This document shows, one piece after another, positions 26,377-60,840 of a stretch of DNA of 64,000 nucleotides. The notes under the pieces were generated by a model. The model did no database searches, was not told the origin of the DNA, and worked only from the letters and a program-made list of their open reading frames with translations. The position numbers and the translations under genes are program-made. Source of the DNA: an uncultured Candidatus Saccharibacteria bacterium (GTDB lineage Bacteria > Patescibacteriota > Minisyncoccia > Phycocordibacterales > UBA2100); assembly GCA_964648335.1 (NCBI GenBank), contig CAZYLZ010000004.1, positions 6,189-70,188 on the forward strand, written 5' to 3'. Within the stretch, counting starts at the first letter, position 1; every line of letters begins with the position of its first letter.

Positions 26377-27210
26377 TCATTTCGCCTGCCAGTAGTGCCG
26401 CCACGAATAGACCGTTTTTCCAGTATTGCTCTTTTGTATCGGAGTATACCGGCTCACATATTCGTGACCTTCGTAAGTAATCACCGCTCCCGAGGGTGCA
26501 TTTGGGTACAGGTCGTCGAGCATAATGTCCAACCTCTCCTCTTCGGTCATAGGAATCTTCCCTGTCTTCTTGAGTGCACGCTCTATGCGCATTTTTTTCT
26601 TGTAGCTGTCTACAAACGGAGCATCGCTACTCTTGTTTGGATTGTTGCTGTTATCACTCATAGTTCCGAATATCTGACCGTCCTTATATCGTTCGTATTC
26701 TTCGAGCGTAAACGATTCGTCGGGCCGTGCCAAAAATTCCTTAAGATTTTGCGCCGATCGTCTCGCTGCCGCTCGTTCAGCTTTGAGTAGCTGTTCGTGT
26801 GCCTCGCGATATTTTGCAGACTGCTCCATACCCTCGAGCACGCGCTCGCGCGAATACTCAAACGTATGTGGTCTCCACTGGTCCTGCAGTTCGGGTGACA
26901 TTTGTAGTTTATGCTTTTCCCATTGCTTAAGACTTACCAGCGCGCTCAGGGTTACCGATCGTTCGTCCCAAGACACCTCGGGTTGCTTCTGTCGTATCCA
27001 TCGAACTGCTTGTTTGGCTTCTTCGAGCGAGATGTTCGATTGTAAATGTTTGTGGTTGATCCGCTGTACTTTGGCAAAGTCGACGATAAACATGCGGGCC
27101 TCTTGTTCGAGCTTGTCTTCGGTAAATTCCGGCGCCGCTTTGGGAATCACTTCTTTCTTGGCTCGCTTAGTGGGCTTTTCGATACCTTTCTTGGACATAC
27201 TATTTTGCAA
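26377..27210 (-). CDS. Hypothetical protein (277 aa); overlaps the smc stop, so likely the same operon.
   Basis: Intact ORF with a basic N-terminus. No motif recognised. Confidence 0.5.
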   Translation of the reverse strand: MQNSMSKKGIEKPTKRAKKEVIPKAAPEFTEDKLEQEARMFIVDFAKVQRINHKHLQSNISLEEAKQAVRWIRQKQPEVSWDERSVTLSALVSLKQWEKHKLQMSPELQDQWRPHTFEYSRERVLEGMEQSAKYREAHEQLLKAERAAARRSAQNLKEFLARPDESFTLEEYERYKDGQIFGTMSDNSNNPNKSSDAPFVDSYKKKMRIERALKKTGKIPMTEEERLDIMLDDLYPNAPSGAVITYEGHEYVSRYTPIQKSNTGKTVYSWRHYWQAK

Positions 27211-29443: not shown

Positions 29444-32092
29444 ATGGCTGTGGAGAACCATGATTTCGCGGATAGCACGAGCGTATACTGGATTGACATG
29501 AAGCAGCCACACGGAGGCAAGAGAGAGTTGATCGGAAAGCCCGGTGCCGAGAAAGGGTCATCTGCGCCCGAAGTACTCCCTCCGCTTGAGCAATCAGAAG
29601 CTCCCCATTTTCAAGAAACCATGGCGGTCTTTGGAAAAGCCATATCGAAGGCGCGCGAATCTGCAAACACGCAAGACAAGTACGGGCTCTACCAGCTGCA
29701 GGTGCTTATGCGTATGGAAGAAGCGCTCAAAGAGGGTGTCTTGGATGTGCGAGTCATCGAAGCGGTCCATACGATTTTTAAAGACCACCGCGCGATAAAC
29801 AAGTTTGGCGAAAACAAGGGCGGCGTCATCTTGCAGCATATCAATACGTATTACGACTCCGTACTCGACAAGAGCGAAGCATCAAAAAAGGTCGAGGCCC
29901 ACGGCAATATCATGCTGGAGCTCGCCGAGGCACTTGGCATACCACTGAGCGATCCCGGTCTCATATCGGCCGAAGCACGCAAGACCAAACAATGGCTTGC
30001 GGTTATCCCTAAGGAAACGATGTCCAAAGAGGCACGTGCCGAGTACGAACGCACACAGAGCATGCAGGAGCGCGCTGCAAAACGCGGCGAGCGCATCGAT
30101 GCCATCATAAACGGCCTGTTGCCGCGCATCATGGAAGCGGTACCAACCATGCGGATAGCGAAGGGCGACTTCAAAGACGGAGAACCTCACCCCGAGATGA
30201 ACGAGAAGCTGCAGCAGTTCGCTACAGTGGTGGTCCAGCGTATCAACCGCCAGCTCAAGGCAAAGTTCACCGACATCTCGCGCGCCGACAAGATGTCGAT
30301 GACCGACGAAGAGGCCTATATTCAGATGCAAAAAGACAAGGGCCATTGGAGCGATGACGACTCGTCACGCTGGGACGAGTTGTCGGACGAAGGCAAGGCG
30401 GGCGTCCTCAAAAGCAATCGTACCGAGATACTGCGTATCAAGGACGATCCCACGCGTCGACAAGTCTTTCAGAACGAGTACCTAGAAAAGCTCGCCACGC
30501 TCGATGCGGCGCTCGCAAAGCTCGCAGAATCCGCCACAGGCACCGGCGAACGTATGGGACGGCTCGATCTGTTGCGCGACGATCGTGTCTATGTAGCCCT
30601 CGCTCACATCAAGGCATTTTTTAAGCACACGTACCTTGCAGACGAGATGACTCAGAACGAGAAAGACCGAATCGCAAATTACATGAAAGACGGCGGAAAC
30701 TTTGTTAAGACCTTCGGTACCTACGTCGGCGCAACGTTCCCAAAAACACTGAAGGGCATCGATGGCGCCAAAAAATTCGAAGAAAAGAAGCGCAACGAAA
30801 ACACAGGACTCTCGCTCGATGATACTCCCGAAGAAATCGCGCCACCGGAAGATCGGCTAGAGTCAGAACGATTGCGCAATCTTGCTATCGTCTACCGTGC
30901 CGATCTGGCACGCTTCAACTCACGCTATATCGCGCCAATCCAGCACATGGTCGACCACCCTAACCATCCGTACTTGTCTCCCGATTTCCTGGTCATTTTG
31001 AAAGGACTCATCCCTATATTGCACAAAGACCGCGAGCGGATGCGTACCGGCGCGCTCGCTCGCATAACCGAGGCCGAGAACGGTCCGCAAGACGCGCACA
31101 TCCGCAGCAACCTGTACGCAGCGCGCCTGACGCTCCAGAGCGCGATGATAGGAAGTATCGATCTCGATACCCGCGCACGAGTGCTCATCGAAAAGATCGA
31201 GAGCAGTGGAATATCGACTGCCGACAGCAAACTCGGCGTCACGCCAAAAAGCCAATCGAGCCTAGAAGAAGCATTTGACATACTCGTGGCAAAAGACGGT
31301 CAACTCACGAGACTCTACGACACCTCGATCCACGGCACGATGCTCCAGCTTGCAGACCGCGTCGAGGACCTCCGCAGGGCCGGAATCGACACGGAAGAAT
31401 TACGAAAAATGCGTCTCGCTCTCAAAGGTCTCGAACAGAGCGTTGCCCGGGATTACGCAACGGAAGAGCGACTGCAAAAAATCCGTTTCCGAACTGCCGA
31501 AGCCCAGCTTCGCTCTGCCGAACCATCCGACCGGTTGGGCGAACTCTCCGTTTCGCAGAGTCTGGTCACCAACGAGCTCCTCGCAAACCGTACCGCTGCG
31601 CTTTCGGCCTGTATGGTACTTGATAAGACAATAGACAGGCTTGTTCTTACCCTTCCGAAGGCGGGAACGATGTCCCTTGCATCGCCTATAGATCGGGCTG
31701 CTACCGCGATACCAAAAGAGGAAACGAGATCTTTTGCGCCACCAAGTCCGGTGGCCGAGGCAAAATCAGTTCTCGATACCTTCGATATGGCGCGCAAGAA
31801 TAATGGCATCCAAAGAGATCTCGATACAGCCAAAGCAGCGTTGGCAGCAATGAAAGCAGAAGCGGCTCAGAACAGCGAAGCACTTCGGGAGCTCCAAGCA
31901 GAAGCGAACGAGACGAAAGAGTCTCTCCTCGATCACCAAGAATTTTTGGGTGGTATGACCGATGTTGTAAAATCAACGATATCCATGCTTGAAGCCGTCC
32001 TCGCCGAGGGACATGAAGATCCGAAGGTTCTTTCTAAAGACATTGAAACGATACTAGCTAAGCTCCGTCGCATAAACGAAATAACCGATTAA
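29444..32092 (+). CDS. Large hypothetical protein (882 aa), predicted soluble, alpha-helical/coiled-coil rich. Start codon uncertain.
   Basis: Long intact ORF with no recognisable motif. The start is only 21 bp from the divergent smc start and has no clear RBS. Alternative in-frame ATGs at 29498 and 29621. Confidence 0.6.
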   Translation: MAVENHDFADSTSVYWIDMKQPHGGKRELIGKPGAEKGSSAPEVLPPLEQSEAPHFQETMAVFGKAISKARESANTQDKYGLYQLQVLMRMEEALKEGVLDVRVIEAVHTIFKDHRAINKFGENKGGVILQHINTYYDSVLDKSEASKKVEAHGNIMLELAEALGIPLSDPGLISAEARKTKQWLAVIPKETMSKEARAEYERTQSMQERAAKRGERIDAIINGLLPRIMEAVPTMRIAKGDFKDGEPHPEMNEKLQQFATVVVQRINRQLKAKFTDISRADKMSMTDEEAYIQMQKDKGHWSDDDSSRWDELSDEGKAGVLKSNRTEILRIKDDPTRRQVFQNEYLEKLATLDAALAKLAESATGTGERMGRLDLLRDDRVYVALAHIKAFFKHTYLADEMTQNEKDRIANYMKDGGNFVKTFGTYVGATFPKTLKGIDGAKKFEEKKRNENTGLSLDDTPEEIAPPEDRLESERLRNLAIVYRADLARFNSRYIAPIQHMVDHPNHPYLSPDFLVILKGLIPILHKDRERMRTGALARITEAENGPQDAHIRSNLYAARLTLQSAMIGSIDLDTRARVLIEKIESSGISTADSKLGVTPKSQSSLEEAFDILVAKDGQLTRLYDTSIHGTMLQLADRVEDLRRAGIDTEELRKMRLALKGLEQSVARDYATEERLQKIRFRTAEAQLRSAEPSDRLGELSVSQSLVTNELLANRTAALSACMVLDKTIDRLVLTLPKAGTMSLASPIDRAATAIPKEETRSFAPPSPVAEAKSVLDTFDMARKNNGIQRDLDTAKAALAAMKAEAAQNSEALRELQAEANETKESLLDHQEFLGGMTDVVKSTISMLEAVLAEGHEDPKVLSKDIETILAKLRRINEITD

Positions 32093-32096
32093 TCAT

Positions 32097-33317
32097 ATGG
32101 CTGAAGGATTTAGAAAAAAAGCAGAAGCGTTGCGAAGACTCGCGAAAGATATCCTGGATACGGAACTCACACCGGCCCAGAAAGCCGCAGCTGAAGCGGC
32201 GGAGCAAGAGGGTGCAGAAGCCGAGATAGTCCCACCTGTCGTCGATACCCCGCACGATATGCCAACCGGCACTGCCCCGATAGACCGCGCGCACGACGAA
32301 AACGAGGCACGAAGGGCCGCCCAGGCGGATCTTGCAGAAGCTACGCGTGCGGCCGCGGCTCTCGAACCTATCGCTCCCCCAACGGCAGCACCTGAACCCG
32401 TTGTCGAGGATGAGAAAACAGAACGAAATACAAGGAAGCCGATACGCCGAGTGCGTAGAAAGAAAAGCGATGGACCTACAAAAGCTACTCTTGACGGTGC
32501 CATGCGCTATACTGCCGACAAGGCCCGTTTCGGTCGCGAGATGGTTGAAGCCTGCGGTCGACTGAAAGAGCGAATCGACAAACAATCCATAGTAATTATG
32601 GAGCAGCTCAATACAGCACTGACTTCAGCCGCCGATGGAAGAGCATACTCGTTCGACGCGACGACAGGAAAAATATCAGCAAACCCACAAACTCCAGATC
32701 TGGTGACTGGATATATCAATACAGAAGAGGTCGTGCGCGAACTCGAGGCACTGGTCCGCGATATCCCGAGGGAAATCGAGACGCTCTTCCATACACTGGA
32801 CGAATCGCACGCGGAATTTGTCGGAATAATGAACGGGGAGCCCGAAACAGCAACCCGAAGGACTTTCGCAGAAGTACCGAAAGTCGAATCGAAACCGCTC
32901 GATACTATCGCTGGAGGAACGCCGAGCCCGATTAAGACTTCGCTCGAAGCGGCACTTCTTGCGAGCGCGGACCGAACCGCTTTCCTTAAAGAACTTGTCG
33001 AAGCATCGAATCGCCTCAAAAAGCAAATTGACGAAAAAGTGGTTTCCCTTCTCATGATGATGAAGAGCGCGCTTGCCACCGGTGTCGATGACATAGCCTT
33101 TACACAAAACGAATCGACAGACGCCATCACCCCGGTCCCTCAGAGCGATCCAGTCGCAGGCTTTGCGACACTCGAACGGACTGCGCATGAATTTGCCAAC
33201 GCCGTCGAGAGCATGCCAGAAGAGATCAGACTCCTCATCCAGACACTCTTCGATGCCGATCAGGAATTCACGCGGATTATCAGCAACGGCCTGAACAAAG
33301 GCAGTGCGACTAAATAA
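32097..33317 (+). CDS. Hypothetical protein (406 aa) with an internal tandem duplication of about 130 aa.
   Basis: Repeat pairs FGREMVEACGRLKERIDKQS.../AFLKELVEASNRLKKQIDEK... and ...IETLFHTLDESHAEFVGIMNG/...IRLLIQTLFDADQEFTRIISNG. Starts 4 nt after the previous gene. Confidence 0.6.
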   Translation: MAEGFRKKAEALRRLAKDILDTELTPAQKAAAEAAEQEGAEAEIVPPVVDTPHDMPTGTAPIDRAHDENEARRAAQADLAEATRAAAALEPIAPPTAAPEPVVEDEKTERNTRKPIRRVRRKKSDGPTKATLDGAMRYTADKARFGREMVEACGRLKERIDKQSIVIMEQLNTALTSAADGRAYSFDATTGKISANPQTPDLVTGYINTEEVVRELEALVRDIPREIETLFHTLDESHAEFVGIMNGEPETATRRTFAEVPKVESKPLDTIAGGTPSPIKTSLEAALLASADRTAFLKELVEASNRLKKQIDEKVVSLLMMMKSALATGVDDIAFTQNESTDAITPVPQSDPVAGFATLERTAHEFANAVESMPEEIRLLIQTLFDADQEFTRIISNGLNKGSATK

Positions 33318-33326
33318 CCTACTCAT

Positions 33327-36300
33327 ATGGCAGAATCATTCTTGAGAAAGATGCGCGAAGGCAAAAGCACGGCTGGACCGGCAATGCCGACATTTACCGG
33401 AAATCGAGCGAACGTAGAACACCTACTATCTCCGACCAAGGACATTGAAGCAGGCGCGAGCAAAGAGACGCTCGAGGCGATACAGCGGATAAAGGAAAAT
33501 GCCATACAAGGCATGGTTGCCGATATGAAGGCGGCCGGTATCGAGATCGACGACGCCGGCATCAAAGCCGCCATCGACAACTACGAGAACCAGCCCGGAG
33601 TTAAGCAAGAAGCGATGAAAGCGGTCAAATCGATGCTGCAGTCCCTGCAAGGGAAGACGCCGGATGAGATTGCAGAAACGCTGGCCCAAGACTCTCTCGC
33701 CGTCTTCGAGGCAGGAAAAAACAAGTCAGAGATTCCGCTCGACAACGTCCTGATACCCCTTCTCATGTCCCAGGGCCAGATTCAGCAATCGGCGCTCGAT
33801 AAGGCATCCAAGAAAAAACTTCGCGGTGTAAGCTTAAGCACCAAGAAGCTCAAGACCGGGGCGTTGAGTGCGACAAAGACCGCCATAAGCCGAACCGCCA
33901 TTCCATCGGCATATCTCGTGCACTTTACCCTCGGCGTCGTAGACACAGCAGTCGTCGAGACCGCCGCGAACGGCACGTTTTCGGATTGGGGTCTCGAAGG
34001 CAAGGTCAAAGACGGATTAGCACTCACCTTCTCCATCGCGGCAAATGCTCAATTCGTTAACCGAAAGCTCGGAGTACGAGGAGAATGGATTCGCGGTATC
34101 GGCGACATGGTATGGGGCGATACAACACGTACACGCGTCACCGGTGTCCTCACCTCCGCCCTTATGGCGACGATGGCCCTTGCCATAACTGCAAATACCG
34201 AACGCGGCATCGTAGATTCTGCGGTTTCCGAAGAAGTCGGAATGAAGATGAAAGAGCGCTGGGAAACAGAACGCAAAGCGATGGAAAGTACTATCAGGCA
34301 AGCAGCCAGCCTGTTCCAGACCATTCAGCCGGTAATTGATAAGAAAATGAGCGACGCGTACGTAGCGGGCGGCGTCGGTTGGGGCCCGAGGACCTGGGGA
34401 GTAAACCGTGTTCTCTATGGCAAGAACGCAGAAAGCGATTCGAACTATGCTTCTTTCAAGTCAACACCGGCAACCGCGACACCAACCTTCCGCGGCAAAG
34501 CCATGTCTACCGTAGAAACTCCTACTGCGGCACCAGAAGCACCTGGCCGGCGTGAGGCGGCAGCAGCAGAACTTGCTGCGGCGCAAAAGCGACTAGATGC
34601 GATAAATAAGCAAGCCGAAGGAAAAAGCAAAGCAGAAAAGTCTAAAAAGAAGGCAGATTTAGATGCGGCAAGACTGCGAGTGACAAACGCTCAGGCCGCT
34701 ATCAATGCTCCAAGTCGTGGCACCCCGGCTCCGGGAACTCCCGATACCAGAGCAGCAAAGAGCCCCGAAGAGGTTGAGGCTGCCATGAAAGCGCTCAACG
34801 AGAAGTATGGGTTACAACCTACCGATGGCGCCGAGCAGTATCTTAAAAAGTTGACCGCGGACATTGAACGGGTAAACCCAGAAAATGTGTTCGCCATGCT
34901 CGACTCTCTCATAAAGGAAAGCGAAGTACTTTCGAAATCGGGAATCCTCGGTAACATTTTCGGCATCCTGGCTCCGGTGCCCGGCGTCATGAAGCAGATC
35001 GGAACCAACGTATGGCAAGGCGAGGGATTAGGGTCATTCACTCACGACATCGACTGGTCTGAAACGTTCCATCGAACGTCCGGTGTACGTGCGATTTTTA
35101 AGTCAGAAGAGAAATACCGTAATCGGCGTAACGAGATGGTCAAAGAGCTGAAGAAGGTAATGGTAAGCGCCCAGCTTGATGCCTATCTGAAAGAAGTCTC
35201 TGCTGTCACCGGCATCGACACTGCCATGTCGCTTCCCAATACAAACTTCAACGTTGAGAATGACGCGTTGGGCATCGACCAGACCCCGTATAAGGACATC
35301 GCCAACAAGACCGTTTTCGACTATGTGACACAGATCATCCCTCCCGATGACAGTCCGACGTGGGGTTATATTCAAAGGAGTTTCAGCAAATCGGGCATAG
35401 ATTGGGTGGATGTCTCGACACCACTCGGCAAGAAAGAGGCAATGACACTGCTCATATCTTTTGTGATTCTTCTAATCGGCGGTAGCGTTCTCTACACTAT
35501 CGGCGCCAAGAAAGTGAGTAAACGCTGGGGCGTCATGGGCGCTCTCAAGGATGATGAGAAGAATGGTATCTACAAGACGGAATCGAAGCTCGTCCAGGAC
35601 ATGGTGAAGCTCATCGACGACCGTGAGAAGACGACCCTTGGTGCTATCGCAAAAAGCGGGCTCGATGTTGCCTTGCCGCAGAGAGACAGCGTCGCATTAA
35701 GTGCTGTATTACAGAAGCGGCTGCGCGAACACATCTTGAGCCGCATGAATCCCCCACTCGACCAGACGCCCGAGGGTATCGCATTCGTCAACCGGGAAAA
35801 TTCGCTTGGAAGCCGTAAACTCCGTCACGAGTACGTAGGCAAGTTGAACGAATACATTGAAGGATACAAAAACGATCGAAGCGGTGCCTTGGTTGCCATT
35901 CTACGCGACATAGATTCGGGCCGGTATGCAGAGATAAGCGCCATCAAGGGCTTCGTTGAGAGTTCTCAGGTGCCGGTAAATCGCGAAATGGCGGCAAAGA
36001 ACGTCGCGGACTGGTGGAGCCGTATTGATTCGAAATTTACCAAGACCGAGGTCGAATCCCGCAAGGCAGAAGTACAGAACTTGTATGCACAGCGCGAAGC
36101 GCTTTTGAGCTTGCGACCAGCCATGAAGATCGAGCTCAGCGGATCGATACCGTCTGACGTGATATCACCTGCCGATATCGTCTACACAAACCGATTGGCC
36201 GATATCGATGCCGATATCGCCATACACCACGAAGCGATTAAGCGCATAACCGAGGGCAAAGTAGATGGTCCTGTCGACCGCGACCCGAACGTAGTCTTTT

Positions 36301-37097
36301 CGACCGAACAGGTTCAGTCGCTACAGTCGGAACTCCAAGAGGAAGAGCTTGGAAATACCCTTGAAGGCGCGGATATTACCAAAATAGCGAAGGAATACAG
36401 CACTCTCGTGCAGAGCCTCGGAAAACGCATCGGATCGATGGAAGGGCTCGTATCGCGTGCCTTCGGCGATCAGGCATCCGGGAGCAAAATCTCTTTCGAA
36501 TACGCCTATCGCGACGATCTCCGCGGGCCGGCGATAGTACTCAATCTCGTGCGCCCCGATGGTGACGTGATGACGCTTCCCTTGCGACAAGTAGTCCCGA
36601 GCGTACTCCTCTCTTCCGATGAAGCGATCATGGGAGCAATCGCTCAGTGGTTGCGTCCCGATAGCCAAGAGATGCAAGTTACGCGTCTCTATGCTGTCCA
36701 CGACTCGTATGCGACAACAGTCGAAGAGATCAAAAAAGAGGTGCTTTCCGGAGCAACAGGAGGAATGCTCGACATCGCAGACATCGACGATGCAAAGCTT
36801 GCAAACCTCCAAGACCTGATCCGTCGCAGTGACGTGCTCAAGGTGCAGCGACAACTCATTAAGGTCGCGGACTCTCCCGGTAAGAGTCTCAACCCGGTAC
36901 AACAGAAGGTCTTCGAACAGCCAGACAAGGTTACCCTCAGCGGCATATGGAATAAGGATATCCGCATTACCTTCCGGTTTGCTAAGGAGCGCTACCCTGG
37001 AATCCCTATCAAGTATGATGTTGCCACCGAAGAAGTGGTCATACCTGACCCGACGGGTGAAAAACGAATCAGCATCCGCAGTCCGCAGCTTGGATAA
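33327..37097 (+). CDS. Giant hypothetical protein (1256 aa) with a single central transmembrane helix (around aa 700; LLISFVILLIGGSVLYTIGA) and an N-terminal amphipathic/hydrophobic region.
   Basis: Long intact ORF 9 nt after the previous gene. Shares the start context cATATGGCnGAA and the N-terminus MAE(G/S)F(R/L)(K/R)K with the 32097 gene. No domain recognised. Confidence 0.6.
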   Translation: MAESFLRKMREGKSTAGPAMPTFTGNRANVEHLLSPTKDIEAGASKETLEAIQRIKENAIQGMVADMKAAGIEIDDAGIKAAIDNYENQPGVKQEAMKAVKSMLQSLQGKTPDEIAETLAQDSLAVFEAGKNKSEIPLDNVLIPLLMSQGQIQQSALDKASKKKLRGVSLSTKKLKTGALSATKTAISRTAIPSAYLVHFTLGVVDTAVVETAANGTFSDWGLEGKVKDGLALTFSIAANAQFVNRKLGVRGEWIRGIGDMVWGDTTRTRVTGVLTSALMATMALAITANTERGIVDSAVSEEVGMKMKERWETERKAMESTIRQAASLFQTIQPVIDKKMSDAYVAGGVGWGPRTWGVNRVLYGKNAESDSNYASFKSTPATATPTFRGKAMSTVETPTAAPEAPGRREAAAAELAAAQKRLDAINKQAEGKSKAEKSKKKADLDAARLRVTNAQAAINAPSRGTPAPGTPDTRAAKSPEEVEAAMKALNEKYGLQPTDGAEQYLKKLTADIERVNPENVFAMLDSLIKESEVLSKSGILGNIFGILAPVPGVMKQIGTNVWQGEGLGSFTHDIDWSETFHRTSGVRAIFKSEEKYRNRRNEMVKELKKVMVSAQLDAYLKEVSAVTGIDTAMSLPNTNFNVENDALGIDQTPYKDIANKTVFDYVTQIIPPDDSPTWGYIQRSFSKSGIDWVDVSTPLGKKEAMTLLISFVILLIGGSVLYTIGAKKVSKRWGVMGALKDDEKNGIYKTESKLVQDMVKLIDDREKTTLGAIAKSGLDVALPQRDSVALSAVLQKRLREHILSRMNPPLDQTPEGIAFVNRENSLGSRKLRHEYVGKLNEYIEGYKNDRSGALVAILRDIDSGRYAEISAIKGFVESSQVPVNREMAAKNVADWWSRIDSKFTKTEVESRKAEVQNLYAQREALLSLRPAMKIELSGSIPSDVISPADIVYTNRLADIDADIAIHHEAIKRITEGKVDGPVDRDPNVVFSTEQVQSLQSELQEEELGNTLEGADITKIAKEYSTLVQSLGKRIGSMEGLVSRAFGDQASGSKISFEYAYRDDLRGPAIVLNLVRPDGDVMTLPLRQVVPSVLLSSDEAIMGAIAQWLRPDSQEMQVTRLYAVHDSYATTVEEIKKEVLSGATGGMLDIADIDDAKLANLQDLIRRSDVLKVQRQLIKVADSPGKSLNPVQQKVFEQPDKVTLSGIWNKDIRITFRFAKERYPGIPIKYDVATEEVVIPDPTGEKRISIRSPQLG

Positions 37098-37101
37098 AAG
37101 C

Positions 37102-37134
37102 AAAAGTCCCCGAATGGTCGGGGACTTTGCATTT
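37102..37134. terminator. Bidirectional rho-independent terminator.
   Basis: aaaagtccccga-atgg-tcggggacttt + GCATTT. Sits between convergent genes. Confidence 0.65.
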
Positions 37135-37315
37135 ATGGCAACCGCTTGCCTATGAAGAAAAGGAGCGCACCGACCATGCTGCCGAGGATCGAGAAAGTGA
37201 GCACGAGCGTCAACTTGCGTATATCGGTATAGCCATGGCTTTCGAGAAAGAGTGTGATTCCCCACAGAAATGCCAGTACGAACGTCATTATGAAGAGAGC
37301 TTTCCTGTTGGTCAT
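37133..37315 (-). CDS. Small membrane protein (60 aa, two predicted TM helices).
   Basis: MTNRKALFIMTFVLAFLWGITLFLESHGYTDIRKLTLVLTFSILGSMVGALLFFIGKRLP. Excellent RBS (aaaggagacagtctgATG). Confidence 0.5.
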   Translation of the reverse strand: MTNRKALFIMTFVLAFLWGITLFLESHGYTDIRKLTLVLTFSILGSMVGALLFFIGKRLP

Positions 37316-37411
37316 CAGACTGTCTCCTTTCCGATCTCGGCTGTGTTGGACTTTCCAATATCAATTAAATACCCAGACGGATGTAAATGCAATGAAGTAA
37401 GAAGATCTCTC

Positions 37412-37475
37412 TACCACCCCTTTGCCGCAAGGGCGTTCTCTGCGGCCATCTGCTCGCCCACTTGCTTGGACCTCC
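37412..37475. repeat. Diverged direct duplicate (about 89% identity over about 64 nt) of the rnc 3' end (38350-38413). In-frame and ends with TAG.
   Basis: The 29-nt perfect core aagggcgttctctgcggccatctgctcg occurs at both sites. Minus-strand translation of the copy gives ...KQVGEQMAAENALAAKGW* versus rnc ...KQEAEQMAAENALSAKGW*. Confidence 0.8.
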
Positions 37476-37564
37476 TCTTCGTCTTTTTTCCTTTTTGCCA
37501 GATAAACCCTGTCTTTTTATCTCCTCATATTCACACCGTAAGCTCTTTCTCCATACATGTCCTT

Positions 37565-37598
37565 ATATCAAGACGACCGTTTCAATATAAGAAATCGG
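37565..37598. repeat. 34-bp quasi-palindrome downstream of PaaX-like gene 1 (tccttatatcaagacgaccgtttcaatataagaa). Same sequence family as 38222-38255.
   Basis: Central acgRccgt core flanked by inverted tccttata/tataagRa arms. About 80% identical to the copy upstream of the gene. Confidence 0.7.
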
Positions 37599-37638
37599 AC
37601 TCTGACTGCTCTTCGAAAGTTGTCGTGCCTTGATTTCC

Positions 37639-38220
37639 TCACGGCTTCGAAAGATTAAATCGCTTGCGAAGACGAGTATCGCCCTCGAGTTCTTCTACGA
37701 CCGCATACAATACCTCTCGACCGAGCACGAATTGGGTCTTGATGAGCGTAACGACGTCTTCACTGTCATAAGGATATACCCATACACTCCCCTGAAGCTG
37801 AACAAAGCCTACCGACGCAAGCATCGCGCGAAGCTGATTTCGTGCAGTGCGTCTTCGTTCAGGAACATCAAAAATGACCATCCTCCACTTTTGATCCCAC
37901 TTTTTAGGAACACTTGTCGACCGCGGCTTTTCGGAAAACTTGATTAAAAAACTTTCACCGAGCGAGGTTATGCGCGCATATTTTTTACCATTTTCCTCGT
38001 GCCATGCCACATATCCATGTGCCACAAGTCGCGCTAATGCTGCATTTGCTCGCCAAGCATACGCGGAGCGGTTTTGATTAGTGTACGTCAGCAACTGCAA
38101 GGCATTTGGTGCAACAACTGCGACGCCGAGTAATCCTCCCACCTTGAGTGCTGTCAGGACTGCGTGCTTGATATTCTGCTTACGGGCTCGTTTCTTGACT
38201 CGTTTTTCTATTTTACCCAT
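37639..38220 (-). CDS. PaaX-family transcriptional regulator-like protein, short form (N-terminal winged helix plus central PaaX/Cas2-like domain; no long C-terminal domain). Paralog of 60191..60754.
   Basis: WDQKWRMVIFDVPERRRTARNQLRAMLASVGFVQLQGSVWVYPYD matches the PaaX central region (WDGKW...GFG...). N-terminal wHTH ...LARLVAHGYVAWHEENGKKYARITSLGESFL. Confidence 0.6.
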   Translation of the reverse strand: MGKIEKRVKKRARKQNIKHAVLTALKVGGLLGVAVVAPNALQLLTYTNQNRSAYAWRANAALARLVAHGYVAWHEENGKKYARITSLGESFLIKFSEKPRSTSVPKKWDQKWRMVIFDVPERRRTARNQLRAMLASVGFVQLQGSVWVYPYDSEDVVTLIKTQFVLGREVLYAVVEELEGDTRLRKRFNLSKP

Positions 38221-38221
38221 A

Positions 38222-38255
38222 TCCTTATATTAACACGGCCGTCTATTTATAAGGA
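38222..38255. repeat. 34-bp quasi-palindrome immediately upstream of PaaX-like gene 1 (tccttatattaacacggccgtctatttataagga). Putative operator.
   Basis: Near-perfect dyad around a palindromic acggccgt core. Begins 2 bp upstream of the gene start. Confidence 0.7.
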
Positions 38256-38348
38256 TACTGAGAGGAGATCGGGCAAAATTGAGGGACGGGAAATCGCTTG
38301 GTAGGTGCCGGGCTTTTCGATGTATCGTTAGAGAAACGCTTGTGTGAA

Positions 38349-39038
38349 TTACCAACCTTTTGCTGAAAGGGCGTTCTCTGCGGCCATCTGCTCGGCCTCT
38401 TGCTTGGACTTCCCTTCGCCCTTGGCGACCAAGGTCTGGCCTATGTAGGCTCCCGTTATGAACTTCTTGTCGTGGTCGGGTCCTGCCTGCGCCACGAGCT
38501 CGTACGACGGCGTGATGCCCTCTTTCTCTTGCGCGATCTCCTGGAAGCGGCTCTTAGCGTCTTGCCAGAGGCGTTTCGCAACCACCTCGTCGGTCTTATG
38601 GAACAGCTGCTTGGCGATAAACTGCTCTGCGGCAGCATAGCCTTGGTCCAGGTACAAAGCACCTATGAAGGCCTCGAAGGTGTTGGCCAGTATGTATTGG
38701 CGTGCGCGGCCGGTGTCTTTTGCCTCGCCCTTCGAGAGGAGCAAGAAGTCGTTCATGCCAAGATCGGTCGCAGCCTGCGATATAGAAACAGTATTGACGA
38801 GCGCTGCACGAAACGCTGTGAGCTCCCCTTCGGCTTTGTCGGGATACTTGCCGAACAAAAAATCGGTGACAGCAAGCTCCAAGACCGCGTCGCCCAAGAA
38901 CTCGAGACGCTCGTTATGTGCGATACCCGAGCGGTTCTCGTTTATAAACGAGCGATGTGTAAAGGCCTGCTTTAGCAGCTCTTTCTTGGCAAACGTAAAG
39001 CCGACACGTACCTCGAATGTAGAGAAATCTTTGTCCAT
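38349..39038 (-). CDS. rnc: Ribonuclease III.
   Basis: RNase III signature ERLEFLGDAVLELAVTDFLF; C-terminal dsRBD. Confidence 0.9.
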   Translation of the reverse strand: MDKDFSTFEVRVGFTFAKKELLKQAFTHRSFINENRSGIAHNERLEFLGDAVLELAVTDFLFGKYPDKAEGELTAFRAALVNTVSISQAATDLGMNDFLLLSKGEAKDTGRARQYILANTFEAFIGALYLDQGYAAAEQFIAKQLFHKTDEVVAKRLWQDAKSRFQEIAQEKEGITPSYELVAQAGPDHDKKFITGAYIGQTLVAKGEGKSKQEAEQMAAENALSAKGW

Positions 39039-39075
39039 GTGTCTGCACTCTATCGTAGCGGACCTAAATTACAAG

Positions 39076-39996
39076 CTATTTACTCTCGAGACGCGAGCGC
39101 TCCTTCGAGACGAGCACGTTAATGGCGCGCGTGACGACCGGCAAGATATCGTCGTAAAAGTTGAGGTCTCCTACCTTAGCGAGCGGAAACCACTGAGCGT
39201 CGTCGAGCCCGCCCTCGCGCTTCAAGGTAAGTTCGTCAAATGGCGCTTCGGCGAGGTAGTAGGTGCAGTGACGGCGCTTCTTTCCACGCTCTGGGTCGTT
39301 GGCGATGTACTCGTTCTCGCCGAGCTTTTCGTCGATAACCGAGAGGTCGATACCCATTTCTTCTTTTACTTTGCGGCGAACGCCGTCTTCTGCCGGTTCG
39401 TCGGGCTTGAGCTTTCCTTTGGAAAGCGTCCAGTGCCCGAATATGTCGTGCACGAGCGCAAGATATATCGAACCCGAGTCGCGTGCGTACACGACCGCAC
39501 CGATGAGCTCTTCTACAAACATCTGTTCGCGCGGAATCTTGGGCTTCTTTGCTATGTCGTTCTTTCCAGGCTCACCCAGTTCTACGTATACCGCGCCCAA
39601 GACGCCGTTAACGAAGCGTCCCGACGATTCGCTACCGAAGGTCTTTGCGAGCTCGATAGCTTCGTTTATAGCGACTTTTGCGGGAACCTGCGAGCGGTCG
39701 GCGAACAAGAGCTCGGCCAAGCCCAATCGAAGTATGTTTCTGTCGATGACGGCTATCTTAGATATTGGCCAATCCGGTGCTGCTTTCTCTATGACGCGGT
39801 CGAGCTCGGGGCGCTTGGCGAGGATAGTACGAACGAGCGCCTGCATAAACGGCATGTCGGCTTCGCGAGCGCCGAATTCTTGCGTGTTGGCCATGAGCCG
39901 GCCATTGAGAGCGTCGTCGTTGATAGCATATCCCGCGCTATCCCACTCAAAGAGGGTCTGAAGAACAATCGATCGGGACAGGTGCCTGTTAGCCAT
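39076..39996 (-). CDS. nusB: Transcription antitermination factor NusB fused to a C-terminal NUDIX hydrolase domain.
   Basis: NusB core [31 protein letters not shown] (compare E. coli [31 protein letters not shown]). A Nudix box follows: [23 protein letters not shown]. Total length 306 aa versus about 140 for NusB alone. Confidence 0.75.
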   Translation of the reverse strand: [306 protein letters not shown]

Positions 39997-40072
39997 ACGT
40001 ACGATTATACCTGGTTTAAAAAAGAAAACCCCCTATCGATAGTGGATAGAGGGATTTCTTGCATAGTTTGAT

Positions 40073-40468
40073 TTAAGCTCCTTTCGCGTCGTCTCCTGCC
40101 TTCTTGCGTGATTTTCCTTTTACCTTCTTCGTCTCTTTCTTTCCGTCTACTTCGCCATGATCGTGCTTGTGATCTCCGTGATCGTGGTCGTGGTGATCGT
40201 GAGTCTGCTTGGCGCCTTCTTTCGGAGCGGTGTCGGTGCCGAGTGCGCGCGATTCGGTCTCGCGGCGCTTCAAGCGCTTCTGCGCGCGCTCGGTGCGAGC
40301 AACGACGTTGATGACCTGGCGTCCGCGGTACTTGCCGCAATTGGCGCAGGCGCGGTGTTTCTGGTGATAAGCACCACATTCGCACAAAGCGAGGCGAACC
40401 TCGTCGAGTCCGTGGTGTGAGCGGCGTTTGCCGGTTGCTGAGCGCGTAGAGCGCATTCGGGATACCAT
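40073..40468 (-). CDS. rpmF: 50S ribosomal protein L32 with a long C-terminal extension containing a His/Asp-rich tract.
   Basis: L32 core ...GKRRSHHGLDEVRLALCECGAYHQKHRACANCGKYRGRQV (CxC...CxxC). Tail HDHHDHDHGDHKHDHGE plus a Lys-rich end. 131 aa versus about 57-60 typical. Start could instead be at 40456. Confidence 0.75.
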   Translation of the reverse strand: MVSRMRSTRSATGKRRSHHGLDEVRLALCECGAYHQKHRACANCGKYRGRQVINVVARTERAQKRLKRRETESRALGTDTAPKEGAKQTHDHHDHDHGDHKHDHGEVDGKKETKKVKGKSRKKAGDDAKGA

Positions 40469-40561
40469 AAGGCGCCTAGTATACGTGATATTTCAAATCT
40501 GGCAAGATGAAGCCCCGCAGAGGCCACAGATGGCGCTGATGCGGGGCTAAATATGGCTTTG

Positions 40562-40849
40562 TTAAGCCGTTTTCTTATTCTTAGCACGAACGGAGCCGGC
40601 CAAGAACACTGCGTCTGCACTCAACTTTACCTGCGTGCAGGTTGTTATGAAATTGCTGTCAGCCCCGGATTTGGTACAGCCCGTGCATGCGGGCGAGCCA
40701 GTATGTTCCTTGCAGTGATCGCATGCGAAGCGATCGAGCTCGGTGCGGCTTACCGATTCCAACTCTGAATATCGTTCGAGGACCGATCTGAGGTCCCGAA
40801 CATCGAGCCGGTCTCTTGGCAATCCCTTAGACGCTTTTGGTACTGTCAC
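40562..40849 (-). CDS. Small Cys-rich protein, possibly YceD/DUF177-like (conserved position upstream of rpmF).
   Basis: Contains CDHC...CTGC cysteine pairs. Gene order rnhB - this ORF - rpmF. Weak similarity only. Confidence 0.35.
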   Translation of the reverse strand: MTVPKASKGLPRDRLDVRDLRSVLERYSELESVSRTELDRFACDHCKEHTGSPACTGCTKSGADSNFITTCTQVKLSADAVFLAGSVRAKNKKTA

Positions 40850-40901
40850 GACTTCCCCTTCTTCACTTGTGTTGCAGACCGCGTATCAGTTAACGTCTTT
40901 T

Positions 40902-41483
40902 TTACGAGTTAGTCAACGACCTGATGAAGGTAGCACGATGGATACCGACCGATGGACCGTGCGCAACAATCGCGTCTCGATGAATCTGCGTACCGTAGCC
41001 CTTGTGGATTTCGAACGCGTACGCAGGATAGTCTTGGGCAAGTGCTGTCATCAAGCGATCGCGCGAGACCTTGGCGACAATGGATGCAAGCGCGATGGCC
41101 ACTTCGGTCTCGTCGCCACGCACGATAGCCTTTTGATCCCAAGCATCGTACGGCAGCACCTTGAGACCGGCGTCGAGTACGACCGGCACCGAACCCGGCG
41201 ACGCCAGCCGAGCGGCCGCACGACTCGCGGCAGCGTTGCATGCAGGGACGATACCCTCTGTGTCGATTGTCTTGGCACTCGAGAACTCGACCGCCCAGAC
41301 GACCGCATCGCTTTGCTGTATCCACGCAAACCATTCGTCGCGTTTCTTTGCCGAAAGCTTCTTGCTGTCTTTGAGCTTGGGCACATCGGCCCAGGCGAGC
41401 GGCCTTACGAGCATCACAGCACCTACCGACACTGGACCTGCGAGCGCCCCGCGCCCGGCTTCGTCTATACCAATGCAAATCAT
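40902..41483 (-). CDS. rnhB: Ribonuclease HII.
   Basis: MICIGIDEAGRGALAGPVSVGAV... catalytic DEAGRG motif. Confidence 0.85.
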   Translation of the reverse strand: MICIGIDEAGRGALAGPVSVGAVMLVRPLAWADVPKLKDSKKLSAKKRDEWFAWIQQSDAVVWAVEFSSAKTIDTEGIVPACNAAASRAAARLASPGSVPVVLDAGLKVLPYDAWDQKAIVRGDETEVAIALASIVAKVSRDRLMTALAQDYPAYAFEIHKGYGTQIHRDAIVAHGPSVGIHRATFIRSLTNS

Positions 41484-46919: not shown

Positions 46920-48800
46920 CTAAGAACGGTTGATGATAAGCCGAGGCATACCATCGTTACCGGTAGAAAACTGCATGGTGTCGTGAGTTGTGATATCCGA
47001 GGTGACGATGACTTTCTCTGGGGCGGCAGTTGTGACAGGAGCCTCAGGAGTAATCGGTGCCTCTTCGTAAGCTGGCTCGTCGATGATGGTCTCGTCGAGG
47101 ATCATAGACTCGGGGTCGCTTGCGTGAGCAGATGCTCCCACGAGTCCCAAGACCGATCCTGCAAGGAGTCCGCGCTTGGCTACCACGAGGTAGCCTGCGA
47201 CGACCGAGAGCGATACAAGAGTGAACCAGTACATCGCGTTTCCGAACGGACCGAAGTCGATGCCGGTATACGGGATCTGCGAGAGCGATACGTACGGTGC
47301 ACCCGAGACGTTCACGTTGGTCGCACAGGTGGTCTGGCGTCCCGCGAAGTCTGCGATGGTGAGCACGTAGCTGCGCGATGCCTCTGGGCGTACTGCGAGC
47401 ACTCCCGAAGGGTTTACGTTACCCAAGCCGTCAGAGAGCCATGCACGTACGGCACCCGTCGAGTTCCAGGTAAGGTTTGCTGCAGCGCCGTTTGCAATAA
47501 CATTTGGCGTTGCCGAGATCGAGCATGCAAGGTTGCCAGGAACAGGGATTGGCGTAGGAACCGGTACTGGGATGTAGGTGCTGCCTACCACAGTCGAACA
47601 GGTGTTCGAGCGACCGTTGTTGTATACCGTGAGGGTATAGGTACGTGCGCCGTTGTTAGTACCTGGGTAGACGGTCGTGGTGCCCGCGGTCGAGACCGTT
47701 CCGACACCCGAGAGGTTTGCCGAGGTGGCGTTGTACGAGGTCCAGGTGACCGTCGCATAGCCGTTTGCGTTGATAGTAGAAGGGTTTGCAGAGATGGTGC
47801 AGGTAGGAAGCTGGACCGGCTGTGGCTGTGGAGCGACAACGGAAACCGTTGCTGCACACGAGCTCGTACCGCCTGGGCCATTAACCTGCATAGTGTAGGT
47901 GCGGTTGGTGGTGACGTTCGCTTCGGTTCGGGTACCCGAGCCTATTGCGACCTGGCCAAAGCCCGAGAGGTTTGCCTGGGTTGCATTAGTGGTCGTGTAG
48001 CCAATCGAGACGGTGCCGCCGTAGTTTACCCCCGTGACATGCAGCTGGCATGACGGAACTGGGTAGAACTGTGCCTGCACTATTGGCTGTGGGGTCACCT
48101 GGGTGACGCGAGCAACAGTAGTTACCGGAGTGACGGTGGTTACCGGGCGTGCAACCGAGGTTGCGTATCCAGTAGCGCCGTAGGATGCGCCACGAGCGCT
48201 GGTGTACGAGCCGTAGGCCTGTGCACCGTAGCTAGCTGCGCCATAGCTTGCCGATCCCATTGATACGCCGTAGCCGTCTTCGTTGACGTTAGTCCATGTG
48301 TCGGACTCCGCGACGTTAGTCCAAGTATCTGATTCATTGACGTTAGTCCACGTGTCGGACTCCGCAAGATTAGACCAGGTGTCAGACTCGGACTGGTTAT
48401 ACCAAGCATCGGTGTCACCGGTGTTTGTCCACACATCGGAAGCTGCGTTGTCGTACCATGCATCAGAAACGCCCAAATCAGCCCAGGTATCGGACGAGCC
48501 ATCGGTGTACCAAGAATCAGAGTCGCCGCCAGCATCAGTCCACGTATCAGAAGATCCGCTGTCGTACCAAGAATCCGATGAACCCGAATCATACCAACTG
48601 TCAGACGACCCACTGTCGTACCACGAATCGGACGAACCAGAGTCGTACCAACCGTCGGAATCTCCAAAACCGTCTGCGAATGCTATCTGCACCGTACCAA
48701 AAACACTGGCGAACATGATCGTCGCGACGAGTGTGGTCTGTGCTGTTGTTGCCAATGTCTTATACATACTATGCGTTGTTAAACCCTGTAATAGAGCCAT
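46920..48800 (-). CDS. Large secreted surface protein. Signal peptide, tandem SDSWYDSGS / ESDTWTNVN repeats, three Cys-bracketed domains of about 75 aa, ...YVSLSQIPYTG motif plus TM plus KRG, then a 90-aa acidic C-terminal tail.
   Basis: MYKTLATTAQTTLVATIMFASVFGTVQIAFADG signal (alternative start at 48767). Repeats CTISANPSTINANGYATVTWTSYNATSANLSGVGTV...C. C-terminal PYVSLSQIPYTGIDFGPFGNAMYWFTLVSLSVVAGYLVVAKRG. Confidence 0.7.
   Translation of the reverse strand: MALLQGLTTHSMYKTLATTAQTTLVATIMFASVFGTVQIAFADGFGDSDGWYDSGSSDSWYDSGSSDSWYDSGSSDSWYDSGSSDTWTDAGGDSDSWYTDGSSDTWADLGVSDAWYDNAASDVWTNTGDTDAWYNQSESDTWSNLAESDTWTNVNESDTWTNVAESDTWTNVNEDGYGVSMGSASYGAASYGAQAYGSYTSARGASYGATGYATSVARPVTTVTPVTTVARVTQVTPQPIVQAQFYPVPSCQLHVTGVNYGGTVSIGYTTTNATQANLSGFGQVAIGSGTRTEANVTTNRTYTMQVNGPGGTSSCAATVSVVAPQPQPVQLPTCTISANPSTINANGYATVTWTSYNATSANLSGVGTVSTAGTTTVYPGTNNGARTYTLTVYNNGRSNTCSTVVGSTYIPVPVPTPIPVPGNLACSISATPNVIANGAAANLTWNSTGAVRAWLSDGLGNVNPSGVLAVRPEASRSYVLTIADFAGRQTTCATNVNVSGAPYVSLSQIPYTGIDFGPFGNAMYWFTLVSLSVVAGYLVVAKRGLLAGSVLGLVGASAHASDPESMILDETIIDEPAYEEAPITPEAPVTTAAPEKVIVTSDITTHDTMQFSTGNDGMPRLIINRS
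48283..48665. repeat. Imperfect 27-bp tandem repeats encoding (S/E)D(S/T)W(Y/T)(D/N)xGx nonapeptide repeats.
   Basis: Top-strand units gttagtccatgtgtcggactccgcgac / gttagtccacgtgtcggactccgcaag etc. At least 5 SDSWYDSGS copies. Confidence 0.7.
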
Positions 48801-51448: not shown

Positions 51449-52213
51449 TTATTGCGTAGCGTCTGGCGTCGGATATGCCGAGACAAAGTTGGCTTCGACG
51501 ACCCAGCGCGAGCTCTTTGCTCCAAAGGTGTCACAGGTGCTAAGGGTCAGCTTTTGTCCGCCGTTGCCGCTTAAGTCGATTACTTCTTCGCTCGCATCGG
51601 TCTTGCGAATCTTCGTCACTTGGTAGGTGTAGGTATAGCCGCCTCCGATGACCTCGATAAGCGCGCCATCACTTAGGTCGGGTAAGCCGTTGAAGGCTTT
51701 GTACATCTGGTTGTGCACGACCGGAAGGTGCGAACTATGGCCAAAGATAAGGACATTTCCGACCTCGCCGAGTTTGCCCGACGATGGGTAGCGCACGACC
51801 TCTTTCGTAAGAAGCGCATCGAGTGATGCGACGTTGGTGGTCGATGGATTGCCTACAGGCAAGTCGAGACCTATCGAGCGGATCACCAGGCGCGAAGGCT
51901 CGGCGATTGGTGCGTGCGCCACAACAGGCGCGAGCTCCTCGCCCAAAACCGGAAGCGCGCTGAGTGCCACGGCCATTTCCGGATGCTCTGCCAAGGGGGC
52001 AATCGCTGCAATCTCGGAGTCTGAAATAGTATAGGCCACCGGTACGTCGAAGTCGCTCGAGGCCGAGACGGTGGGCGCGCTACCGTCGACGTAGTATGGA
52101 ACAAACCCGGTCGCGAAAGCGGCCGAGAATGTGATACCGAACAGGAAGAGGCTCGCGAGCATTACTGCGGCGAGATCGCTCGGTTCTTTATGTACTCGTT
52201 TTTGTATGGCCAT
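51449..52213 (-). CDS. Sortase-family transpeptidase (membrane-anchored).
   Basis: N-terminal TM (LAAVMLASLFLFGITFSAAFA), catalytic His (NVLIFGHSSH), TLxTC cysteine motif (QKLTLSTCDTFG) and a downstream Arg (SSRWVV). Confidence 0.8.
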   Translation of the reverse strand: MAIQKRVHKEPSDLAAVMLASLFLFGITFSAAFATGFVPYYVDGSAPTVSASSDFDVPVAYTISDSEIAAIAPLAEHPEMAVALSALPVLGEELAPVVAHAPIAEPSRLVIRSIGLDLPVGNPSTTNVASLDALLTKEVVRYPSSGKLGEVGNVLIFGHSSHLPVVHNQMYKAFNGLPDLSDGALIEVIGGGYTYTYQVTKIRKTDASEEVIDLSGNGGQKLTLSTCDTFGAKSSRWVVEANFVSAYPTPDATQ

Positions 52214-60035: not shown

Positions 60036-60123
60036 AGAGTAATACTAACACCCAACATTCATCAGGGTTACCCTTGTCCGCACGTCGACCTCCATGATGA
60101 TCGCCCAAACTACATGCACCGAT

Positions 60124-60157
60124 AATGTCCTATAGGACATTATCGGTGCATTCAAAA
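60124..60157. repeat. Perfect 34-bp palindrome gcaccgataatgtcctataggacattatcggtgc, between PaaX-like gene 2 and the SDR gene. Putative operator.
   Basis: Exact reverse-complement symmetry. Same family as 60755-60786 and 60841-60874. Confidence 0.8.
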
Positions 60158-60190
60158 AATCGCAAAAAAATAATTGGTACCGCAGTATAC

Positions 60191-60786: not shown

Positions 60787-60840
60787 GTAGTTGCGTTGCC
60801 ACGAGGATCATTGCGCGTAATTCTTCTGTCTTTTTGGCTT

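Follow-up and report, generated by a model that had tools for sequence, protein, structure and literature searches.

How the gene for RNase III (rnc) came to be followed, about 0.94 kb downstream, by a second and diverged copy of its own 3' end, with a single short PaaX-like gene between the two, is the question raised by the 64-kb stretch of DNA analysed here (the window). Bacteria of the candidate phyla radiation (CPR, or Patescibacteria) have tiny genomes and few recognisable mobile elements, and their exchange of accessory genes is poorly understood. On balance, the segment at window positions 37476-38349 is probably a horizontally acquired cassette that entered through general recombination, with the conserved 3' end of rnc as its anchor, and not by means of its own integrase. 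This segment is called cassette 1 (W1, on the rnc side) to set it apart from a second one in the window, cassette 2 (W2, on the SDR side); L-numbers denote surveyed loci. The features of cassette 1 and its borders are as follows.

38349-39038, minus strand: rnc (RNase III), the gene with the duplicated 3' end; 229 amino acids, Ribonucleas_3_3 at 2.9e-38 and dsrm at 3.9e-17.
38350-38413, minus strand: repeat copy A, the functional last 20 codons and stop of rnc, encoding ...KSKQEAEQMAAENALSAKGW and the stop.
38258-38348, minus strand: spacer 1, 91 nucleotides (nt) from the rnc stop to palindrome 1, presumed to hold the cassette promoter.
38220-38257, no strand: palindrome 1, 19+19 nt, reading TATCCTTATA..ACGG up to its centre and CCGT..TATAAGGATA past it; abuts the ATG of PaaX-like-1.
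37639-38220, minus strand: PaaX-like-1, 193 amino acids, PF20803 PaaX_M at an E value of 1.4e-21.
About 37558-37595, no strand: palindrome 2, about 78% identical to palindrome 1 and of the same family, 45 nt past the PaaX-like-1 stop.
37476-37557, minus strand: spacer 2, from palindrome 2 to copy B; a reading as a decayed smc 5' end was not supported.
37411-37475, minus strand: repeat copy B, the displaced non-functional rnc 3' end, encoding ...RSKQVGEQMAAENALAAKGW and an in-frame TAG at 37411-37413.

The two copies form a direct repeat of 64 nt, 37412-37475 against 38350-38413, in which 57 of 64 positions (89%) are identical. A preliminary description of this DNA had reported the repeat as in frame and stop-terminated at about this identity, and it was correct. 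It had also reported a perfect core of 29 nt; a perfect core, AAGGGCGTTCTCTGCGGCCATCTGCTCG, does exist, but it is 28 nt long, and it occurs twice in the window compared to 0 times expected from 100 shuffles. Upstream of the repeat, weaker similarity continues for about 15 nt with a 1-nt insertion or deletion. At the other edge, similarity between the copies stops at the stop codon, and spacer 1 is unlike the sequence that follows copy B. Copy A retains the motif QEAEQ, which is invariant across 74 other lineages, and copy B has radical changes at these invariant residues (E to V and A to G, giving QVGEQ). Of those lineages, 63 are closer to copy A than to copy B. Copy B lies in an open frame that has no start codon and is, therefore, a pseudo-end. 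The rnc gene, PaaX-like-1, and copy B are all on the minus strand. Apart from the pair at cassette 1 and the pair at cassette 2, the whole 64 kb held no non-tandem direct repeats with at least 85% identity less than 6 kb apart.

More than 17 contigs, drawn from three assembly sources and at least 8 independent samples, were compared across 36000-41000 and agreed at 100%. Because the arrangement is the same across independent samples and assemblers, it is not an assembly artefact and is fixed in the sampled clone. Outside this clone, the closest rnc genes were 73-75% identical in species-representative genomes, and the closest match among 5.8 billion proteins was 77% identical in amino acid sequence. 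One 2.7-kb contig (JGI 3300045377, L088) joins a fragment of an IMPDH gene (its first 308 nt) to window sequence at 38308, which is 41 nt past the rnc stop, and stays collinear with it from there across cassette 1 and copy B. This single low-coverage contig was not used as evidence; it is either a true rearrangement or a chimera that the assembly formed at a short word common to both sequences.

The only credible gene between copies A and B is 37639-38220 on the minus strand, and related quasi-palindromes stand on both sides of it; both points had been anticipated in the preliminary description, which gave the palindromes as 34 bp where they measure 38 bp. Its claim that the cassette lacks an integrase also held, and extends further, since no integrase, transposase, or recombinase was found in the cassette or among the approximately 35 Pfam-scanned genes of the 64-kb window. 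Spacer 1 presumably carries the cassette promoter; a promoter and terminator scan gave nothing beyond shuffle expectation, and an Rfam scan of the window found no known RNA family. The GC content of the two cassettes is 46.3% and 46.9% compared to 54.8% for the window, which is in the lowest 2% of windows. The low GC of the 0.87-kb segment indicates that it behaves as an acquired cassette, and that earlier suggestion is borne out also by the insertion hot spot in which the segment lies and by the same duplication at other cassettes, both described below.

The ancestral order in related genomes is rnc followed by smc, and of 56 related loci about 22 have the two genes less than 50 nt apart. About 30 loci have instead a gap of 0.3-5.5 kb occupied by varied small genes, and PaaX-like modules were observed in it in several lineages and in both orientations. 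Two further features of the window belong to this gap.

37133-37315, minus strand: an open reading frame (ORF) for a hydrophobic (membrane) protein of 60 amino acids, directly downstream of copy B; a gene call in independent assemblies, with no family match.
27200-29422, minus strand: smc, SMC_N at 3.5e-64, located by tblastn, 8.9 kb from rnc.

The distance of 8.9 kb between genes that are normally adjacent in this clade marks the rnc-to-smc interval as an insertion hot spot. In the window it holds cassette 1, the ORF of 60 amino acids, and three large genes without a family match. The last three, at 29444-37097 on the plus strand, encode 882, 406, and 1256 amino acids, match nothing in Pfam or PADLOC, and fill most of the gap. 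We considered whether spacer 2 might be a decayed smc 5' end, as would be left by a donor with the order rnc-cassette-smc. This looked plausible by eye but was not supported: a profile of 56 smc heads (nhmmer) had no match in spacer 2, and local alignments of spacer 2 to smc heads did not score above shuffles (p = 0.07). Likewise, no duplicate of an smc head was present in any of 25 occupied rnc-to-smc gaps.

The second cassette of the window, at 60035-60980, is bracketed by a direct repeat of 30 nt with 90% identity (60005-60034 against 60981-61010), and here the duplicated segment is the 5' end of a gene.

60005-60034, minus strand: copy A', the GTG start and 9 codons with which the functional SDR gene (59328-60035) begins.
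60981-61010, minus strand: copy B', the displaced pseudo 5' end of the SDR gene, with an ATG start and the nucleotide-binding motif TGAGRG (TGxxxGxG) broken to TETGQG.
60191-60754, minus strand: PaaX-like-2, 187 amino acids, 38% identical to PaaX-like-1.
60111-60154, no strand: palindrome downstream of PaaX-like-2, with a perfect 19+19 core at 60114-60151 and a predicted RNA hairpin of -29.4 kcal/mol (z = -8.4).
60750-60793, no strand: palindrome overlapping the PaaX-like-2 start codon.
60846-60889, no strand: third palindrome of cassette 2, perfect 20+20 at 60848-60887.

The three palindromes of cassette 2 form a family that differs from that of cassette 1.

We surveyed 89 PaaX-like loci, scanned 1.13 Mb for self-repeats, and checked 76 testable rnc loci for duplicates of the rnc tail. 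In at least 4 further CPR loci, a gene end and a short duplicate of that end enclose a PaaX-like cassette, and two more of the 76 rnc loci (L006 and L012) have a downstream duplicate of the rnc tail with cargo of another type.

L144: duplicates the last 13 codons and stop of ftsW/rodA; PaaX-like cargo.
L171: duplicates C-terminal codons of a convergent neighbour; PaaX-like cargo.
L145 and L167: duplicate the last 10 codons and stop of rpmB, left beside the murB stop; PaaX-like cargo.
L150: a non-coding repeat of 67 nt; PaaX-like cargo.
L006: rnc-tail duplicate of at least 99 nt, copies 99-100% identical; the cargo is a RelB/YafQ pair.
L012: rnc-tail duplicate; the cargo is a MazF/PemK toxin gene.

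Flanking repeats were found at 12 of 65 PaaX loci compared to 0 of 232 random placements in the same loci, and in 6 of the 12 (W1, W2, L144, L150, L171, and L168) they lie clearly outside the palindromes next to the gene. The scar is independent of the type of cargo. The duplicated targets comprise the 3' ends of rnc, ftsW, and rpmB, the 5' end of the SDR gene, and a non-coding site; the repeats are 30 to over 100 nt long and share no core, and the palindromes lie inside them at a distance of 29-112 nt. A sensitive tblastn search of the other PaaX loci found no pseudo-copy of the rnc tail besides the one in the window. The MazF-like cargo of L012 and L079 was considered as a donor-recipient pair and set aside, since the two are just 34% identical and uninformative. 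The L150 repeat (2140-2250 and 3140-3245 of that locus) is rich in motifs resembling DnaA boxes, TTATCCAC and TGTCCACA, and is adjoined by a Phd/Doc pair; it may be a replication-origin region.

Two gene ends could have been brought together from different lineages, or a single end could have been duplicated in place. Under the latter explanation, a break-repair or template-switch insertion would have copied 30-100 nt of the target, and copy B would then have decayed neutrally while copy A remained under selection, with no foreign end involved. The differences between the copies do not fit such a history well. In six repeat pairs, 14 of 22 differing codons are silent, an excess with p = 3e-5 against random decay and p = 0.006 against the 35% expected if one copy was selected and the other neutral. 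Stop and start codons are kept but switched between copies (TAA/TAG, TGA/TAA, and ATG/GTG). The edge of the repeat is no more than 4 nt from a stop or start codon in 5 of the 6 coding cases, and all similarity ends there, whereas the non-coding flanks of a duplication made in place should still be recognisable at that age. At L012, the inner 35 of 35 nt are identical and are followed, from the last codon onward, by about 7 differences in 25 nt (about 72% identity) and an insertion or deletion, a step in divergence that looks like a crossover point and counts against decay in place. The gene-end pairs flanking PaaX-like genes are all 88-93% identical, with none at 94-100%, which also counts against duplication in place. 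Because of the silent excess, the switched stop and start codons, the repeat edges at ORF termini, and the step at L012, these comparisons favour two gene ends that were each once functional in different lineages.

We infer from this that one of the two copies was foreign in origin and that recombination took the following course. The host chromosome, with its rnc-to-smc hot spot, is that of a Paceibacteria/Parcubacteria (CPR) bacterium, and the cassette consists of the PaaX-like gene, two palindromes, and a spacer of about 90 nt on each side. The incoming DNA would have included its own version of roughly the last 20 codons of rnc, homologous to the resident end. Once recombination was complete, copy A would end the working rnc, and copy B would be left 0.94 kb downstream, dead and decaying. 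This could have come about by either of two routes. By the first, homology-facilitated illegitimate recombination of a linear fragment, a homologous crossover would have occurred in rnc, and the second joint, an illegitimate one, would lie about 80 nt before the stop codon of the resident gene. By the second, a circular cassette carrying a partial gene end would have integrated by a Campbell-type single crossover. Cassettes 1 and 2 lean towards a reciprocal event, since their differences are silent near the terminus and radical further in, and L012 leans towards a non-reciprocal one.

Several observations weigh against acquisition by recombination in the gene end. Copy B is 87% identical to copy A and at most 83% identical to any of the 74 other lineages, a ceiling that applies to copy A as well; the copies are thus closer to each other than to any sampled lineage, and duplication in place keeps appreciable weight for this reason. 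The silent excess has a p value of only 0.04 when transition bias lifts the expectation to 43%. The asymmetry between terminal and inner differences, which would favour a reciprocal crossover, is not significant (p = 0.07), and W1 and L012 point to different sub-mechanisms. Blocks of identity are short in W2 and L171 (13-16 nt), which is marginal for RecA-type recombination unless later decay has shortened them. That the closing or illegitimate joint should so often fall just 30-100 nt inside the anchor gene is unaccounted for. Finally, we looked for an empty site by retrieving contigs with exact matches to the PaaX-1, 60-amino-acid ORF, NusB-NUDIX, SDR, PaaX-2, and Shedu proteins, and by an rnc homology search; no empty site, donor lineage, or circular junction was found, the contigs carrying the neighbouring proteins all belonging to the same clone (100%).

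Duplication in place is also consistent with the decay of copy B, both in the E to V and A to G changes at invariant positions and in the 1-nt insertion or deletion upstream, and with the near-identity (99-100%) of the L006 copies over at least 99 nt. Taken together with the patterns of divergence, we regard it as unlikely, although it is the best of the alternatives. The proposal in the preliminary description that one copy is native and the other foreign is, accordingly, partly supported: the silent excess, the codon switches, the edges at ORF termini, and the L012 step speak for it, and the mutual closeness of copies A and B speaks against it.

The preliminary description had ascribed the repeat to an integrative element with an attachment (att) site. 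In such a case, cassette 1 would be a non-autonomous site-specific cassette of the cis-mobilisable type, with the 28-nt core as its att site, a recombinase encoded elsewhere, and a gene-end mimic that restores rnc. The perfect core between diverged arms is as this explanation would have it. So is the reach of the element-side copy exactly to the stop codon, as in elements that occupy tRNA genes and other gene 3' ends. Silent terminal differences with radical inner ones would resemble hybrid attL and attR sites, a pattern for which p is only 0.07. However, related cassettes have unrelated targets, repeats of variable length and distance, and no shared core; toxin-antitoxin cargo gives the same scar; the identical inner 35 nt of L012 are a better fit to a non-reciprocal event; and no recombinase was found among the genes scanned. 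The variable repeats, differing targets, cargo independence, and missing recombinase disfavour a transposase or site-specific integrase generally. The att-site mechanism is therefore not upheld, and we consider a site-specific cassette quite improbable.

Before the palindromes are considered as part of an element, the protein between them needs description. PaaX-like-1 is predicted to have a hydrophobic N-terminal segment of low confidence, a helix-hairpin-helix winged-helix part, and a ferredoxin-like, Cas2-like domain (AF2 pLDDT 75). Its best solved relatives by Foldseek were E. coli PaaX (PDB 8a39), Rv0674, VapD, and Cas2, the Cas2 and VapD matches having probabilities of 0.85-0.99 but E values above 1e-3. 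Of the Cas2 profiles, PF09827 scored 19.6 bits (cut-off 23.8) and TIGR01573 scored 25.6 (cut-off 24.5); TIGR02277 scored 37.2 bits, far under its cut-off of 264.55. Of the PaaX architecture only PF20803 PaaX_M passes, and the PaaX_C domain is absent. Like E. coli PaaX, the repressor of phenylacetate catabolism, the protein has a winged-helix part and a central Cas2-like domain; unlike it, the protein lacks the C-terminal domain, has 193 rather than about 305 amino acids, has no nearby paa genes, and has flanking palindromes of its own. There were no paa genes among the scanned window genes, the neighbours being rnc, nusB-nudix, the small membrane ORF, and SDR. By profile score, domain architecture, and gene neighbourhood, PaaX-like-1 is not a true PaaX. 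No CRISPR array was present in a repeat scan of the window, and no cas1 was among the scanned genes.

The family to which this protein belongs comprises 637 clusters at 50% identity (E up to 1e-30), and a search of the available literature found no paper on it. In 57 of 80 loci, a locus-specific repeat of 30-40 bp, usually palindromic, stands close before the ATG and again close behind the stop. This count is BLAST-based, as a strict palindrome finder missed imperfect sites such as those of cassette 1. Flanking palindromes are apparently a family-wide feature that has not been described. The closest homologue (55% identity) has a closely similar palindrome, and palindrome similarity follows protein identity throughout (Mantel 0/500), which shared ancestry alone could give. 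Palindrome 1 includes a Shine-Dalgarno-like motif, AAGGA, and its RNA hairpin fold has a z of -2.6. As the upstream palindrome holds AAGGA and abuts the start codon, it is most simply read as a cognate operator or translational hairpin. The PaaX-like protein would bind its own palindromes, most simply as an autoregulator, or else as part of a selfish or defence-type module, and the palindromes would most simply be cognate binding sites and not recombination sites.

A more far-reaching explanation is that palindrome, PaaX-like gene, and palindrome constitute a new mobile element, in which the protein would bind the palindromes and catalyse or direct movement, by analogy with IS200/REPtron, and the duplications would be by-products. 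The palindromes at both gene ends and their covariation with the protein are in keeping with this, as are the variety of contexts in which modules occur, their presence in both orientations at one hot spot, a nuclease-type fold with the invariant residues D118 and E121, and extra palindromes that bracket neighbouring genes (thyA-folA, L131). However, the repeats lie 29-112 nt outside the palindromes at a variable distance, the palindromes are not dispersed elsewhere in the window, their overlap with the start codon and AAGGA is like that of operators or translational hairpins, and toxin-antitoxin cassettes have the same scar without a PaaX-like protein. To our knowledge, no catalytic activity has been reported for PaaX_M domains. 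The PaaX-like protein could have a role in mobility, but none is indicated, given the distance between repeats and palindromes and the presence of the scar at toxin-antitoxin cassettes; we hold such an element to be highly improbable. The broader claim that palindrome-flanked PaaX-like genes are self-mobilising mini-elements throughout the CPR, excising and integrating at gene termini with a gene-end mimic that spares essential genes, is very doubtful as well. The chance that copy B is the remnant of a tandem rnc duplication whose second body was deleted or replaced, which the preliminary description had named as what would overturn its account, is close to negligible: copy B is in frame and ends in a stop, but the window has a single rnc body and only a 20-codon tail besides, and the same pattern recurs at the SDR 5' end and several other genes.

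Extra copies of the palindromes were also observed at other loci. At L131 (4063-5638), a further copy of the palindrome behind the PaaX-like gene lies 1.5 kb downstream of it, and the pair brackets a thyA-folA operon. In L183 and L168, likewise, there is a third copy, accompanied by 70-80 nt of additional repeat.

Acquisition anchored in a gene end has precedents. Displaced ("orphan") 3' ends in type VI secretion system (T6SS) and Rhs loci have been explained by homology-facilitated illegitimate recombination (PMC5361080, and de Vries & Wackernagel 2002, Prudhomme 2002, and Meier & Wackernagel 2003 as cited there). As with the orphan ends of Rhs, contact-dependent inhibition (CDI), and T6SS loci, a module enters beside a conserved anchor gene, the resident end is pushed downstream as a non-functional partial copy, there is no dedicated recombinase, and arrays can accumulate at one hot spot. 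A partial copy of a gene end lies beyond the module in W1, W2, L144, L171, L145/L167, L012, and L006. In those systems, however, the incoming end is a new toxin domain that changes function, whereas here it is an equivalent housekeeping end (rnc, rpmB, ftsW) of 30-100 nt, and the module carried along is small and unrelated, of a regulator-like or toxin-antitoxin type. For both, the mechanism is inferred. Campbell-type integration similarly produces a direct duplication of exactly the homologous segment, of any length, with hybrid copies around the crossover, and host recombination suffices for it; in contrast, no circular form was observed here, and the origin of a circle with a partial gene end is hypothetical.

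Other known systems share part of this arrangement. Integrative elements occupy the 3' ends of protein and tRNA genes, and their integrase-less derivatives are the cis-mobilisable elements (CIMEs), for example in the fda gene of Streptococcus thermophilus. As in CIMEs, direct repeats bracket the insert, one of them completes the target gene (copy A completes rnc), the repeat ends at the gene end, and there is no integrase. Unlike CIMEs, related cassettes have no att core in common and very variable repeats, no recombinase was seen in 64 kb, and the insert is a single gene of less than 1 kb. Mobile ORFs of fungal mitochondria, such as that in Allomyces atp6, bring a foreign C-terminal segment and displace the resident one; they are homing endonucleases that cut their target. 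At atp6, too, the mobile ORF stands between a hybrid gene whose 3' end is foreign and the native 3' end that was displaced. The PaaX-like protein, however, is not known to cut DNA, and in the loci studied here the scar is also seen with toxin-antitoxin cargo. REPtrons and IS200/IS605 elements likewise have a single small gene, a product of ferredoxin-like fold, and cognate palindromes on both sides. The PaaX-like protein, however, is of the PaaX_M/Cas2-like and not the HUH Y1 transposase type, and its palindromes are not dispersed. Compared to insertion sequences and miniature inverted-repeat transposable elements (MITEs), there is no transposase domain, the palindromes lie 29-112 nt inside variable and diverged repeats, and the core and palindromes are only local in the window. 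Compared to integron cassettes, the palindromes are locus-specific, flank the gene at either end, and vary together with the protein, and no integrase was found among the scanned genes.

Observed here at CPR housekeeping genes is a displaced gene end, probably left by homology-anchored gain and tied to an undescribed and widespread cassette family. A repeatable scar, the short displaced copy of a gene end beside a cassette of less than 1 kb, marks recent gene gain at rnc, rpmB, and ftsW, and could serve to catalogue and date gene-gain events genome-wide. It suggests that recombination in conserved gene ends, plausibly after DNA uptake, lets selfish or regulatory modules spread even though they bring no integrase. 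The survey also brought to light a large family of modules that consist of one gene each, encode a Cas2-like domain, and have a cognate palindrome on either side.

Some further features of the window and of related loci were recorded. At 39076-39996 on the minus strand, NusB and a NUDIX hydrolase domain are fused in one protein of 306 amino acids, and two related loci, L002 and L006, have kept the fusion. A gene for the anti-phage defence protein Shedu (SduA), with a GC content of only 42%, occupies 61061-62104 on the minus strand (PADLOC E 1.8e-137), in the interval from pheT to cassette 2 and immediately upstream of the displaced SDR head; its place next to the displaced head marks it as another small accessory insertion. 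A 7634-nt contig (JGI 3300045332, L188) folds back on itself, running through Shedu, PaaX-2, and SDR and then through the same genes reversed, which is probably an assembly hairpin artefact. Logan contigs break within the palindromes of cassette 2.

An insert resembling a MITE, about 122 nt long and ending in inverted repeats of 14 nt (CCCGTTAGAAGT...ACTTCTAACGGG), was found at 1360-1490 of L010, 7410-7540 of L004, and about 8180-8222 of L001. It is placed exactly at the smc start codon, with a duplicated ATGTA(T/C) on its flanks. Intragenic tandem repeats occur at two places in the window, at 5881-6095 with an irregular spacing of 12-18 nt (gene 4605-6224) and at 48279-48663 in units of 27 or 54 nt (gene 46920-48800). 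Both genes are large and have no Pfam match, and they probably encode surface proteins, given that a sortase gene is located nearby at 51449-52213.

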